64,000 nucleotides of DNA from Clostridia bacterium (GCA_017626395.1 JAGAIU010000075.1:42349-106348); one strand, 5' to 3'; positions 21,139-25,014 are shown, counted from the first letter of the stretch. A program made the numbers and translations. Notes: generated by a model not told the origin, from the letters alone.

Positions 21139-21846
21139 TTATTCTTTAAATTGTATATCTTTCAATTCAAATTCATATTCTTCATCTGTTGTTGGATATA
21201 CATCAATTGTTACAATCTTTTCTTGACCAGGTTCTATACTTTCTATTATTGCTGTCTTCCCAGTATTAACCTCTTCAACAGTTGCTTGCTCTAAAGTTTG
21301 CTTTGATTCGTTCTTTACAAATACTGTTAATGTTTCCTGATCAACATAATCATAATCTACAACCATATATGCTGTTGGTCGCACATCATTTCCGTTATCT
21401 TCAATTGTTCTTAAAGAACCGACTGAGCCACCCAAGTCAATTCCAAATAATAAAAAGATCCACATAAAGAACAAAGATACTCCACCAAAGATTGATTTTA
21501 TTGGAGTAGCTATGTCATCAGTAATCTCTGCACGTTTTTTGTACTTATCTAGTTGTTCTTTAATTTGTTTAGAGTCTTCTGTGTGTTTTTCCTCTAATTC
21601 CTCTAGTTGTTCTTTAATCTCTTGAGATTCTGATGCTAAAGGAGAATAAGCTAATTCGTTTCTGTTTTTTCTGTATTCTTCCAGCTCCTGTCTTTCTTTC
21701 TCCTCTAAGGATCTTTTCTTATCATTGCAATAGCATTCAATTAACCATGAAGTAATAGATACCACCAGCCATACTGCTCCTGCAATTAAGAAAATTAAAA
21801 ATAAAACTACTACGCCTTCTTGTAAGGCTAAAATTTTTTCGCTCAT
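21139..21846 (-). CDS. Hypothetical two-helix membrane protein with a coiled-coil segment
   Basis: 235 aa: first transmembrane helix, a charged coiled coil, second transmembrane helix, then a C-terminal Asp/Glu-rich domain. It has its own consensus promoter, and a terminator follows at 21090-21125. Confidence 0.5.
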   Translation of the reverse strand: MSEKILALQEGVVVLFLIFLIAGAVWLVVSITSWLIECYCNDKKRSLEEKERQELEEYRKNRNELAYSPLASESQEIKEQLEELEEKHTEDSKQIKEQLDKYKKRAEITDDIATPIKSIFGGVSLFFMWIFLLFGIDLGGSVGSLRTIEDNGNDVRPTAYMVVDYDYVDQETLTVFVKNESKQTLEQATVEEVNTGKTAIIESIEPGQEKIVTIDVYPTTDEEYEFELKDIQFKE

Positions 21847-21942
21847 CTATCGAGCCCTCCTTCTAACTGTAGATATGGTATTTACCATATACTTCCCAAA
21901 ATTTCTATTAAGAAACTCTACGTATATTTAGAAAGCGACTCT

Positions 21943-21971
21943 ATTATAGCACAACTTTATGTTTATGTCAA
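21943..21971 (-). promoter_or_regulatory. Perfect sigma-A consensus promoter TTGACA-17-TATAAT, preceded by a terminator hairpin (21977-21999)
   Basis: The minus strand reads TTGACAtaaacataaagttgtgcTATAAT. It drives the 21139..21846 gene. Confidence 0.7.
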
Positions 21972-22013
21972 CAAAAAGAAGTGCATAATTTGCACTTCTT
22001 TATTTTATGTTTA

Positions 22014-22679
22014 TTAAAGAGAAACATTTTGAGTGATTAAACTATATGTTGCAACTACAGGAATACTATTTTTTATTATATCTTTTTTATATTCCCCTTT
22101 AATTGATATCCTATTCACAAATTTTCCCATTGCATAAGCATATATTATTCTTATATTAGGATTTTTTGCAGCAAGTTTTTCAATTACCTTAACTGGTGGC
22201 AAATCATAAGTTTCAAAATTGATTTGATTTCCTTTTATTTTAATATTTGCTGCACCACTTCCTGTTCCCCAGGCTGCTTCTCTGACCATATATCCATTGA
22301 AAATAGATTTTGATCTTACTTTATCTAAAAAGGATTCAGCATCCTTCAACATTTTTTCAGTTTTATTTTTAGATTTAACACTATTTAATTGTTCTGGTGT
22401 TAAAATTTTAAATTCATATGGTACTTCTCTTGTTCTACCAACAAAAGTACAAGTTTTAATAAATCGCTCTTTATCTGCTTGTTTTTCATGCATATATACA
22501 TTTAAGCAAGCATTGATGTAATCGTTCATCTCCACATCGTTTTTATCTTTGTCAATAGCTTCAATTTTATTAAAGTCAAATAAGCTCTTATCACTTTTTA
22601 ACTCCTTTAATATACTATCAACTTCCTCTGCAACTCCTTCGAATTGCAATAAATTTTTGATTACATGATCATTACTCAT
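22014..22679 (-). CDS. Hypothetical soluble protein (221 aa)
   Basis: Complete ORF with RBS AGAGGAAAG and its own consensus promoter and terminator. No family recognised. Confidence 0.5.
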   Translation of the reverse strand: MSNDHVIKNLLQFEGVAEEVDSILKELKSDKSLFDFNKIEAIDKDKNDVEMNDYINACLNVYMHEKQADKERFIKTCTFVGRTREVPYEFKILTPEQLNSVKSKNKTEKMLKDAESFLDKVRSKSIFNGYMVREAAWGTGSGAANIKIKGNQINFETYDLPPVKVIEKLAAKNPNIRIIYAYAMGKFVNRISIKGEYKKDIIKNSIPVVATYSLITQNVSL

Positions 22680-22794
22680 TTAATCTTTCCTCTCTTTCTA
22701 ACTTTTTTTCATATAAATTTACATCTAAAATACAACTAAAATACTATTCCACCTCCTAAATTATTAGTCGTTCAAATTTTTTAAATGCATTTTT

Positions 22795-22823
22795 ATTATA
22801 TCATAGCATTTTAGTTATGTCAA
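22795..22823 (-). promoter_or_regulatory. Perfect sigma-A consensus promoter TTGACA-17-TATAAT, preceded by a terminator hairpin (22838-22868)
   Basis: The minus strand reads TTGACAtaactaaaatgctatgaTATAAT. It drives the 22014..22679 gene. Confidence 0.7.
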
Positions 22824-22878
22824 CTTTTACCCAAAATAAAAAACCTTGAAATATATAATTTCAAGGCTTTATCTATAT

Positions 22879-23325
22879 TTAAGCAAAGCATTTTGCAATA
22901 GAATATTTATTTGCATTAAACTTTGCTGATATTTTCATATCCACAACTGTTCCATTTTCGTATTTTTCTCTTACAATAACACCTTTTTGATTTTGTTCTT
23001 GTAAATGACAATACTCAGCATCTAAATGCATTTTCTCAATTGTTCTCTTTAATCTGTATAAAAATTTCTCATTGCTAAAAGCAAACATGTATTTTCCTGA
23101 TGCACATTTTGCAAAGAAAACTACATCTTCAACTTTCATTTTATTAACATTCCAATTATTATTTACGAATGTTGTAGAAAATTTTTCTACATCTTTTGGA
23201 AATTGAACTGAAATCAATGGAATATTTCTTGATTTAATTTCTTCAATATACTTTAATAATTCTCCTTTTCTTTCTTCTCCTTCAACTATAATAACATTAG
23301 TTAATTTTTTTGATACTTTACTCAT
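22879..23325 (-). CDS. Hypothetical protein (148 aa), paralog of the upstream disrupted gene
   Basis: Shares MSK(V/I)SKKL at the N-terminus, and Y(M/I)FAFSN and Y(S/N)IAKC(F/L)A further on, with ORF 23378..23758. Confidence 0.5.
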   Translation of the reverse strand: MSKVSKKLTNVIIVEGEERKGELLKYIEEIKSRNIPLISVQFPKDVEKFSTTFVNNNWNVNKMKVEDVVFFAKCASGKYMFAFSNEKFLYRLKRTIEKMHLDAEYCHLQEQNQKGVIVREKYENGTVVDMKISAKFNANKYSIAKCFA

Positions 23326-23377
23326 ATCAAAATCCTCCTTTTAATTTAATAATTTTTTTTCAATTGTGTTTATCTCA

Positions 23378-23820: not shown

Positions 23821-23906
23821 AATTAATTAAATAAGCTAAGTTGAATTATTTTTTTACCACCTCACTTTAATATTAATCGTGTGTAAAAAATTTAAAACGC
23901 CTCATT

Positions 23907-23935
23907 ATTATAACATAGTTTTTGGATTATGTCAA
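23907..23935 (-). promoter_or_regulatory. Perfect sigma-A consensus promoter TTGACA-17-TATAAT, preceded by a terminator-like hairpin
   Basis: The minus strand reads TTGACAtaatccaaaaactatgtTATAAT. It drives the paralog pair 23820..22879. Confidence 0.7.
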
Positions 23936-23977
23936 CAAAAAATAGAGATAAATTGATTATCCCTATTCTTTATTTTA

Positions 23978-24403
23978 TTATTTCTTATATTTACTATAGT
24001 ATTCATATATATCTTCATCACTAATTTTAGTGTTTTCTTTAATAGTATATGCTTTTATCCAAGGCATTTCCTTTTTTAGCATTTCTTCTAGCTCTAATCC
24101 AGAATACCTTCCAAAAACAAGTAATATTTTATCTATAAAGTTTTCATGCTTTTTATCTTGTAATATAACTTGCTCTTTTACATTAGGTTGTTTCTTTAAA
24201 TATTCATATACTTGTATATTCACAGGCCCATGTTTTCTCGCTTCAAAATCGCCTTTAAATAACTTTTTCATATCATCTGAATACTTTTCATTATACTTTA
24301 TTAAATATAACGAATATGAGTAAAATAACAGCTTCTGCACTTGCTTTGGAGTATAAAGATGTTTAGATAATATAAAATCTGTAACTTTTAAAATCTCTTC
24401 CAT
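23978..24403 (-). CDS. Panacea (DUF4065) domain protein, PanA/SocA-like antitoxin
   Basis: PKQVQKLLFYSYSLYLIKYNEKYSDDMKKLFKGDFEARKHGPVNIQVYEYLKK matches the Panacea core pattern (KLLYY...L...PLF...FEAW..GPV...VY). The likely start is MEEILKV, inside track ORF 23978..24427. Confidence 0.6.
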   Translation of the reverse strand: MEEILKVTDFILSKHLYTPKQVQKLLFYSYSLYLIKYNEKYSDDMKKLFKGDFEARKHGPVNIQVYEYLKKQPNVKEQVILQDKKHENFIDKILLVFGRYSGLELEEMLKKEMPWIKAYTIKENTKISDEDIYEYYSKYKK

Positions 24404-24467
24404 AATAATACCTCCTCTATTTTTCACATTATATTAATTTAGTGTTAAAGAATATATTTGCTTAATT

Positions 24468-24496
24468 ATTATAATAAATTTTATAGTTTATGTCAA
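24468..24496 (-). promoter_or_regulatory. Perfect sigma-A consensus promoter TTGACA-17-TATAAT, preceded by a terminator hairpin (24498-24525)
   Basis: The minus strand reads TTGACAtaaactataaaatttatTATAAT. It drives the Panacea gene. Confidence 0.7.
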
Positions 24497-24514
24497 CAAA
24501 AAAGTAGAGATATA

Positions 24515-24901
24515 TTAATACATCTCTACAAATTTTAATTCTATTATTTCAAAATCTACATTCTTAAAATATGAATCTAAACTAAAATATAATTTTTTCT
24601 TATCTCCAGGTCTTACTTTGTGAATAGTTTCTGTTTTCCCAGACGTATTTTCACGTACCGTTAAAGTTCCAATCATCTGTTCACTATCATTGCTAATACT
24701 AAGAAAGATTTCTTGTTTTGAAAATACATGATACACTTGCTCATATTCTGTAAGCTTAAGCCCTTCTCGTGTAGTATTATACTCCCTGTCAATCCTTATT
24801 CCATTTGTTAGTAAAAACAGAATAACAAAGTTAATTATGCATAATATTGGTAATGCTATCGCTAAGTAGATGATAAGTCGATCTAAAAAAGTATCTCTCA
24901 A
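24515..24901 (-). CDS. Hypothetical small membrane protein (128 aa, TTG start)
   Basis: N-terminal transmembrane helix LIIYLAIALPILCIINFVILFLLT. RBS GGAGGAGG precedes a TTG start. It has its own near-consensus promoter. Confidence 0.45.
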   Translation of the reverse strand: MRDTFLDRLIIYLAIALPILCIINFVILFLLTNGIRIDREYNTTREGLKLTEYEQVYHVFSKQEIFLSISNDSEQMIGTLTVRENTSGKTETIHKVRPGDKKKLYFSLDSYFKNVDFEIIELKFVEMY

Positions 24902-24985
24902 TTTTTCCTCCTCCTAGCGAAAAATAATATGCTCTTGTTGCTAATATAAAAATCTTTATATTACTTTTCACATTAAATCTACTTA

Positions 24986-25014
24986 AGTATAACACCTTTT
25001 TGTTATTATGTCAA
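24986..25014 (-). promoter_or_regulatory. Near-consensus sigma-A promoter TTGACA-17-TATACT
   Basis: The minus strand reads TTGACAtaataacaaaaaggtgtTATACT. It drives the 24515..24901 gene, and the -35 element abuts the stop codon of the CaCA gene. Confidence 0.6.

Follow-up and report, generated by a model that had tools for sequence, protein, structure and literature searches.

A conserved, origin-proximal array of consensus-promoter transcription units with structured leaders in uncultured gut and rumen Clostridia

Why should a row of small, uncharacterised genes, nearly every one behind its own promoter of almost perfect sigma-A consensus, lie beside a bacterial replication origin? Such a row occupies positions 21,139 to 25,014 of a 64,000-nucleotide stretch of DNA from a Clostridia bacterium (GCA_017626395.1, JAGAIU010000075.1:42349-106348), referred to here as the window, with positions counted from its first letter. 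An initial annotation, made from the sequence alone, took the row for an accessory island of phage-moron, defence or toxin-antitoxin cassettes. We favour a different answer, to which we give a probability of roughly 60%: that the array is a conserved, chromosomal, origin-proximal set of independent transcription units, predicted to be highly expressed, in the core genome of its clade.

The window has a GC content of about 25% and includes the replication origin, the sign of the GC skew flipping near 38.5 kb and dnaA starting at 39402. For the local proteins, exact copies turned up in no sequences other than metagenome assemblies from rumen and gut, all belonging to one uncultured Clostridia species. 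The genes, promoters, leaders and terminators given with window coordinates from here on are all on the minus strand, where the order is a Ca2+/Na+ antiporter gene (25015-25962), A, B, C1, C2, D, E, a VanZ-family gene (20566-21069), LCP and DUF2207. Capsule-type glycosyltransferases follow beyond DUF2207, and parB, gidB, two tRNA genes and dnaA lie on the opposite side of the array, so its placement between a capsule locus and origin-proximal genes was correct. For comparison we gathered 13 related loci (about 177 kb in total, denoted by L numbers), by anchoring on the antiporter in species-representative genomes and by looking up exact matches to divergent homologues of the D, C and E proteins. 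The ordered core C, D, E, VanZ is present in all 13, except that no C homologue was detected in L340, and the array lies between the same flanking genes wherever a contig reaches far enough. A was found in most loci covering its position, and in one subclade a gene for a flotillin of about 490 amino acids (aa; Band_7) stands ahead of it. The antiporter is 71-88% identical in the nine loci that include it, and the VanZ-family gene, which ends the array in all relatives, is 43-66% identical and evolves as fast as the cassettes. The array belongs to the conserved core genome of a group of uncultured gut and rumen Clostridia of about 25% GC and is not a mobile island. Rather than being present or absent as a unit it is retained in the related loci, and gene B alone is accessory; the array is conserved and syntenic, but none of its genes has an assigned housekeeping function.

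The five minus-strand promoters are those that the initial annotation had listed, four of them exact TTGACA-17-TATAAT matches (12 of 12 hexamer positions) and one TTGACA-17-TATACT (11 of 12), and the TTGACATAA core is, as it had claimed, common to all five. Promoter P1 (24986-25014; TTGACATAA-N14-TATACT, with TG before the -10), which overlaps the antiporter gene's stop codon, would drive A; its orthologue in L017 likewise reads TATACT. P2 (24468-24496; exact consensus) would drive B and is the sole array promoter that lacks the extended -10 element TGn, which is found in the other four. P3 (23907-23935; TTGACATAA-N14-TGnTATAAT) would serve both C1 and C2, while P4 (22795-22823) and P5 (21943-21971), each an exact consensus with TGn, stand ahead of D and E respectively. 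In the whole window the exact TTGACA-17-TATAAT arrangement occurs six times against 0.06 expected from shuffles, four of the six being inside the 3.1-kb array, and TTGACATAA occurs seven times against 1.9 expected.

The same promoter type precedes each gene in the related loci. These 13 loci hold 49 exact-consensus promoters, 38 of which are TTGACATAA with a 17-nt spacer; all 38 are on the array strand and 37 are inside arrays, whereas the other 11 read TTGACAA.. and mostly (9/11) have a 16-nt spacer. A separate count gave 39 TTGACATAA promoters, 38 of them with TGn (the exception being the promoter of B) and 36 with G/A-C 7-8 nt past the -10, the likely start point. All the related loci examined have constant hexamers at the orthologous sites, against diverging spacers and coding sequences. 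The array units carry a predicted clade-specific 'super-consensus' sigma-A promoter, in which an upstream tract rich in T is followed by TTGACATAA, a spacer of strictly 17 nt, TGn, TATAAT and G/A-C. A second consensus class (TTGACAAAT-type, with a 16-nt spacer and without TAA) is kept after parB in relatives. In the window two tRNA genes (28753-29083) lie directly downstream of an exact TTGACAAAT-16-TATAAT promoter, so the array promoters fit the consensus as well as a stable-RNA promoter does. The TTGACATAA class is used outside the main array too, since in L338 (3459-4218) a promoter of this type drives an unrelated gene of 224 aa, located between parB and DUF1292 at a place that two Stealth-family genes take up in the window.

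Intrinsic terminators, each a GC-containing hairpin with a U-run (-13 to -20 kcal/mol), are predicted after A, B, C2, D and E. The U-runs of the terminators of A (24504-24529; -13 kcal/mol), B (about 23937-23967) and D (21975-22001) lead straight into the next -35, which for A is that of P2 and for D that of P5. The terminator of C1-C2 is at 22840-22870 (-19.7 kcal/mol for the region folded) and that of E at 21115-21134, a palindromic hairpin readable on both strands. The modular, insulated layout, with a promoter and terminator for each unit and uncharacterised products, therefore holds as first described, with two corrections. A terminator precedes four of the promoters, but upstream of P1 (25014) there is no hairpin with a U-run; and the array does not have one cassette per gene, as five promoters serve six reading frames, with C1 and C2 sharing one. 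A unit is predicted to consist of a conserved, structured 5' leader and a separate ribosome-binding site ahead of one gene (two in the C1-C2 unit), closed by an intrinsic terminator that abuts the next -35.

The leaders of two of these units are conserved as structures. The E-type leader (21847-21942) is predicted to form three helices, a 5'-terminal helix P1 (GCUUUC/GGGAAG in the window, GCUUCU/AGAAGU in relatives) and hairpins P2 and P3. Of the 16 pairs given by RNAalifold, 12 are compensatory; pairing holds in 91.4% of cells, compared with 34-52% when partners are slid, and none of 500 shuffles reaches the observed values. The window E leader also folds better than shuffled sequence (z -2.8). 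A leader some 75 nt long, lying past the -10, is common to the D gene and the flotillin gene; in the window it is represented by the D-type leader (22718-22788; 67.5 bits, E 6e-11), in which a 10-bp stem beginning at about +1 encloses an inner stem whose loop shows TAATAATTTAGGAGGTG. In the family as a whole the outer helix P1 pairs G/A-CAUUUAAAA with UUUUAAAUGY, and the helix P2 within it is CAACUAA/UUAGUUG with UAAUAAUUUAGGAGGUG displayed in the loop. The same nested stems form in 12 of 13 sequences folded singly; MAFFT with RNAalifold gave only the outer stem, and a covariance model was required to register the inner one. This model found one copy of the leader per D gene and per flotillin gene and none elsewhere in 240 kb, and pairing is kept in 89% of cells (96% for P1) as against 24-52% with slid partners.

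The box in this loop resembles a Shine-Dalgarno (SD) sequence. Written as AGGAGGTG, it is invariant in the 13 D/flotillin leaders, GGAGGTG being constant, and GGAGGUG is complementary to the conserved 3' end of Firmicute 16S RNA. The real, weaker ribosome-binding site and the ATG lie 35-50 nt downstream (about 35 nt in the D gene of the window). By eye, the box is followed by no conserved start codon or upstream reading frame, only by short, non-conserved frames initiated by ATT. A scan of metagenomes and viruses with the box in the form TAATAATTTRGRAGGTG gave 0 of about 240 loci with the full promoter-plus-leader module; TAATAATTTRGRAGGTG was dropped as a leader signature, being a common AT-rich ribosome-binding context. 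Rfam returned nothing meaningful at E<=1 over 20500-26500, and for the whole window only two tRNAs at the gathering score. By these comparisons the E-type and D/flotillin-type leaders are two predicted RNA families that are previously undescribed and absent from Rfam.

How would such units work? The promoters would fire strongly and independently, and the terminators would insulate the units from one another. The leaders, whose 5'-terminal stems start at the predicted +1, would lengthen the life of the mRNA or load ribosomes, and in the D/flotillin leader the perfect SD-like box AGGAGGUG, held in a loop that precedes the real site by 35-50 nt, would block RNase J1. We infer that the leaders shield the 5' end of the mRNA against RNase J1, act as standby sites for ribosomes, or both. 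The products would be abundant proteins that are probably envelope-associated, with A and E in the membrane, C and D soluble, and flotillin in relatives, although this is a weaker part of the proposal than the expression units themselves.

There are precedents for leaders of this kind. Stabilising 5'-terminal stem-loops include those of the Bacillus subtilis aprE leader, of ermC and of the Escherichia coli ompA 5' untranslated region (UTR). The E-type and D/flotillin-type stems likewise begin within 1-2 nt of the predicted transcript 5' end, but the sequences are unrelated and the three covarying helices of the E-type leader are more elaborate, which leaves room for a regulatory role. In Firmicutes 5' stem-loops block RNase J1, as do STAB-SD elements (PMC4113751). 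The D/flotillin leader resembles the STAB-SD of Bacillus thuringiensis cry3A (Agaisse & Lereclus 1996; Mathy et al. 2007; summarised in PMC4113751) in having a strong SD-like box in the 5' UTR, far upstream and without a usable start, that is complementary to the 16S 3' end and lies on a transcript expected to be abundant. Here, however, the box is displayed by a conserved nested hairpin, in its loop, with the outer stem beginning at the predicted +1, and the box is common to the unrelated D and flotillin genes across the clade. The cry3A element also differs in following a processed, not a primary, 5' end.

Several points weigh against this account. Both 'highly expressed' and 'stabilising' are inferred from the sequence. 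The D/flotillin leader shows little covariation, with double changes at 4 pairs, a level that 14 of 500 shuffles attain, because the leader sequence is itself conserved, and the folding energy of the D leader is unexceptional (z -1.8). Complementarity of the SD-like box was judged against the conserved Firmicute 16S, as the window has no rRNA gene, and the C-type and A-type leaders showed no single common fold. The envelope link comes solely from the neighbourhood (VanZ, LCP, DUF2207, capsule locus) and from predicted membrane topology, and the Api92/YubB superfamily, to which D is assigned below, is otherwise common in phages and plasmids. Finally, sigma-A recognition alone does not explain why the TAA following the -35 is invariant or why the spacer is always 17 nt; these features could mark a dedicated regulator.

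This last point opens the alternative that survives best, a real possibility but a distinctly less likely one, in which the units form a co-regulated regulon. A factor of its own, which might be a sigma-A paralogue or a regulator touching the TAA, would then recognise the TTGACATAA-17-TGn pattern, and the leaders, instead of passively stabilising the mRNA, would be sensors (like riboswitches, or attenuators that bind a protein) turning on all the genes jointly. Such a regulon fits the presence of the TAA extension in all 38-39 array promoters and its absence from the 11 other exact-consensus promoters. It also fits the leader families being more conserved than the proteins downstream of them and one leader family being common to the unrelated D and flotillin genes. 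Yet the promoters carry no operator-like dyad or further conserved block beyond the sigma-A elements, no leader has a terminator or a stem sequestering the real ribosome-binding site, and the leaders match no Rfam family. Leader families also differ between genes, which argues against one common ligand.

Compared with the closest species the flanking genes are 87-99% identical and the cassette genes 48-89%, and at the protein level the cassette genes evolve 2-3 times as fast as most flanking genes. The ratio of nonsynonymous to synonymous substitution (dN/dS, Nei-Gojobori) is 0.13-0.44 for the cassettes and VanZ and 0.03-0.21 for most flanking genes, so the cassette genes are functional but less constrained. 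Synonymous divergence (dS) is uneven. For E it is 0.25 against L343 and 1.2-1.3 against L342 and L344, where the flanks give 0.4-0.6, and in L335 the D-E-VanZ-LCP segment has a dS two to four times that of the genes to its right. This mosaic of dS values indicates recombinational exchange of individual cassettes between lineages.

Gene B (23978-24403; 141 aa, Panacea/DUF4065) has a different history. Its cassette (23936-24496) is a 561-bp insertion specific to the window species that contains P2, a 64-nt leader, gene B and a terminator. When aligned with L343 and L344 the insertion is clean, extending from B's own -35 to the U-run before the C1 promoter, with the direct repeat TTTTTTGTTGACATAA, which is a terminator tail plus a -35, at both ends. 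The two relatives whose sequence covers the site of B lack the gene, and none of the other related loci gave a detectable copy. On this alignment the B cassette is a promoter-to-terminator unit inserted at a terminator/promoter junction. The B leader has weak similarity to the resident C1 leader (z 2.4; 8 of 300 shuffles), which was not used as evidence of capture.

An extension of the preferred reading, which we consider speculative and less likely than the regulon, would have the clade-specific terminator-promoter-leader module act both as an 'expression socket' that is portable and as a scaffold of homology at which recombination takes place. Genes, foreign or variant, could be gained at it (as Panacea between TTTTTTGTTGACATAA repeats) or alleles swapped (as in E) with identical expression, giving an integrase-free cassette platform for fast-evolving, possibly cell-surface proteins. 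Integron arrays are likewise rows of small, unrelated, fast-changing genes with a repeated junction at which a cassette is gained. They differ in that here there is no integrase among the annotated neighbours, no attC was seen, the junction TTTTTTGTTGACATAA is a terminator U-run and -35, and the cassettes have their own promoters and no shared Pc.

Could the cassettes nevertheless include a toxin-antitoxin pair? The description of B as antitoxin-like stands as far as its domain is concerned, as it matches Pfam PF13274 above the cut-off (E 5e-7, 31.1 bits against 25.7), but it has no adjacent toxin partner. Its score against the NCBIfam SocA model, 37, is far below the cut-off of 190. Membrane proteins, some of them small like A, do occur among PanT toxins (Kurata et al. 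2022, PMC8832971). A was considered as the toxin of B and rejected, because A is conserved in relatives without B. B is monocistronic, with a terminator and a promoter on each side, and the 561-bp insert contains no toxin candidate. In contrast to the PanA-PanT and SocAB systems, with which B shares the Panacea/DUF4065 domain, the neighbours A and C1 are independent of it and exist without it in L343, L344, L020, L337 and L338. The defining feature of a toxin-antitoxin system, an adjacent dependent toxin, is therefore lacking, and B is, as judged from its gene neighbourhood, a solitary Panacea protein rather than half of a pair, and the array's one truly accessory element.

The wider proposal, that the array as a whole is a horizontally acquired island of moron, defence or toxin-antitoxin cassettes, has become very improbable. 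It drew on the promoter and terminator around each gene, which are moron-like, and it could draw further on the Panacea domain of B and its distant homologues in Paenibacillus phages and Streptococcus satellite phages, on a match of D to phrog_12644 (2e-9) and to viral YubB-domain proteins, and on fast protein divergence with mosaic allele patterns. Against it, the array is syntenic in 13 of 13 related loci with the same core genes around it, and its base composition is that of its flanks. Among the annotated neighbours, which are the antiporter, VanZ, LCP, parB and capsule genes, there is no integrase or phage structural gene. PADLOC gave nothing for A-D, and for E only weak matches in the coiled coil (E 6e-4 to 6e-3). 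Purifying selection acts on every cassette gene (dN/dS below 0.45), the sole element missing from relatives is B, which has no partner toxin, and scans of IMG/VR found no close relatives of B or of the D family. Phage morons are likewise promoter-gene-terminator units, and the B cassette was gained as such a unit, but this array lies outside any prophage, is syntenic across species, and has units of one promoter class with leader families. Units that look like morons are not necessarily mobile, which is a caution for the calling of islands. That the promoters are chance matches without function in a genome of 25% GC has a negligible probability. In its favour, TATAAT-like hexamers are common in AT-rich DNA, and a loose promoter scan found fewer sites (56) than in shuffled sequence (72.7). 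Against it, the exact 12 of 12 matches far exceed expectation, four of them lie on one strand, 65-115 nt ahead of a gene and directly past a terminator, and their hexamers are invariant at orthologous positions, a conservation across species that refutes the chance reading.

If the array is indeed a core set of strong transcription units, the clade keeps near its origin a battery of maximally expressed, mutually insulated genes in which the control signals are far more constrained than the proteins. The two compact promoter-plus-leader modules could then serve as strong expression parts for low-GC Clostridia.

The gene descriptions of the initial annotation were essentially right. The product of gene A (24515-24901), a membrane protein of 128 aa, has a single transmembrane helix at its N-terminus and ends in a domain of about 86 aa. 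Its TTG start (24899-24901) is kept in several species (L020 13888, L337 5814), behind a very strong SD sequence, AGGAGGAGG or AGAAGGAGG. Gene E (21139-21846) encodes 235 aa, arranged as a transmembrane helix, a charged coiled coil, a second transmembrane helix and a C-terminal beta-rich domain in common with A, the C-terminal regions of the two proteins being homologous (hhalign probability 96.4%, E 1e-9). From the distribution of charge we take the C-terminal domain of E to face outward.

D (22014-22679) is a soluble protein of 221 aa with the invariant motif SIFNGYMxRxxxWGTGS. Direct hmmscan of D against Pfam gave nothing at E<=0.1, D and C both being below Pfam thresholds, and when the D, E and A families were compared with the PDB by sequence profile, the outcome was either blank or coiled-coil noise, which leaves the notion of A as an NfeD-like partner of flotillin a bare conjecture. 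The best structural match of D, by a clear margin, is PDB 2IJR (Api92/YubB), and its viral structural matches are YubB-domain proteins. An exhaustive profile search with D gave a narrow core of 13 clusters (E<1e-30) within a superfamily of about 700, and PF18406 was present in 10 of 10 sampled members. This transitive profile link and the 2IJR fold mark D as a predicted divergent member of the Api92/YubB (DUF1281) superfamily. C2 (22879-23325; 148 aa), a soluble paralogue of C1 without its own promoter, has a predicted Api92-like, ferredoxin-type fold and the same best structural match; a comparison of C with D by hhalign was not significant, and C is a putative Api92/YubB-like protein. With respect to the known Api92/YubB proteins (DUF1281, PF18406; PDB 2IJR), D and C form a narrow, chromosomal, syntenic family. 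A search of the literature on DUF1281, Api92 and YubB gave nothing on function. If the preferred account is right, a fold so far found mainly in phages and plasmids gains a conserved chromosomal setting by flotillin and envelope genes, which makes its function more approachable.

C1 (23378-23801) had been described as the frameshifted member of a duplicated pair. The two genes are indeed paralogues and the frame is broken, but this is not simple decay, as the break occurs in four species and the frame downstream of it is under purifying selection. An open reading frame of 31 codons (ORF0, 23706-23801) ends at UAA, and the +1 frame, which has no start codon, is then open for 110 codons to 23378, for which the chance probability is about 5e-5. 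The break (region CGGAAAGAGTAAATTAAA) reads CGG AAA GAG TAA ATT in the window and CGG AAA RAG TAA RTT AAA across the four species (window 23378-23801, L342 210-633, L343 1673-2096, L344 3550-3979). Differences are skewed to third codon positions (24/19/44), with a dN/dS of 0.17-0.31, and L338 has an intact C1 orthologue. C1 is a candidate for programmed +1 ribosomal frameshifting. A near-invariant Cys lies three residues from the C-terminus of the C family (..AKCFA, KCLA, RCLR, FCII, RCFN in homologues from L016-L344).

Some further observations concern the neighbourhood. Gene content at cassette junctions differs between species, and small extra genes, uncharacterised, are intercalated in the arrays of some relatives (L019 14467-14922, L016 13409-13720, L340 680-1818). 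Between DUF2207 and the DUF3800/RelA_SpoT genes the window has a gene for a Fic and winged-helix protein (16207-17178), a spot that holds a hexapeptide-transferase gene in L335 and L342 and other genes in L016; if the neighbourhood has a truly variable accessory site, it seems to be this spot and not the cassette array.

The Ca2+/Na+ antiporter gene has its own promoter and a leader of about 170 nt (25963-26164) conserved in seven species, with an intrinsic terminator (26024-25994) directly before the ribosome-binding site. Some of its motifs (GGGAGUAG, ACGAGAC) resemble those of yybP-ykoY, but RF00080 gave no match, and the leader matched no Rfam family even at E<=10. RNAalifold gave 41 pairs, 6 of them compensatory, at -38.9 kcal/mol, and we regard this leader as a candidate unclassified riboswitch or attenuator.

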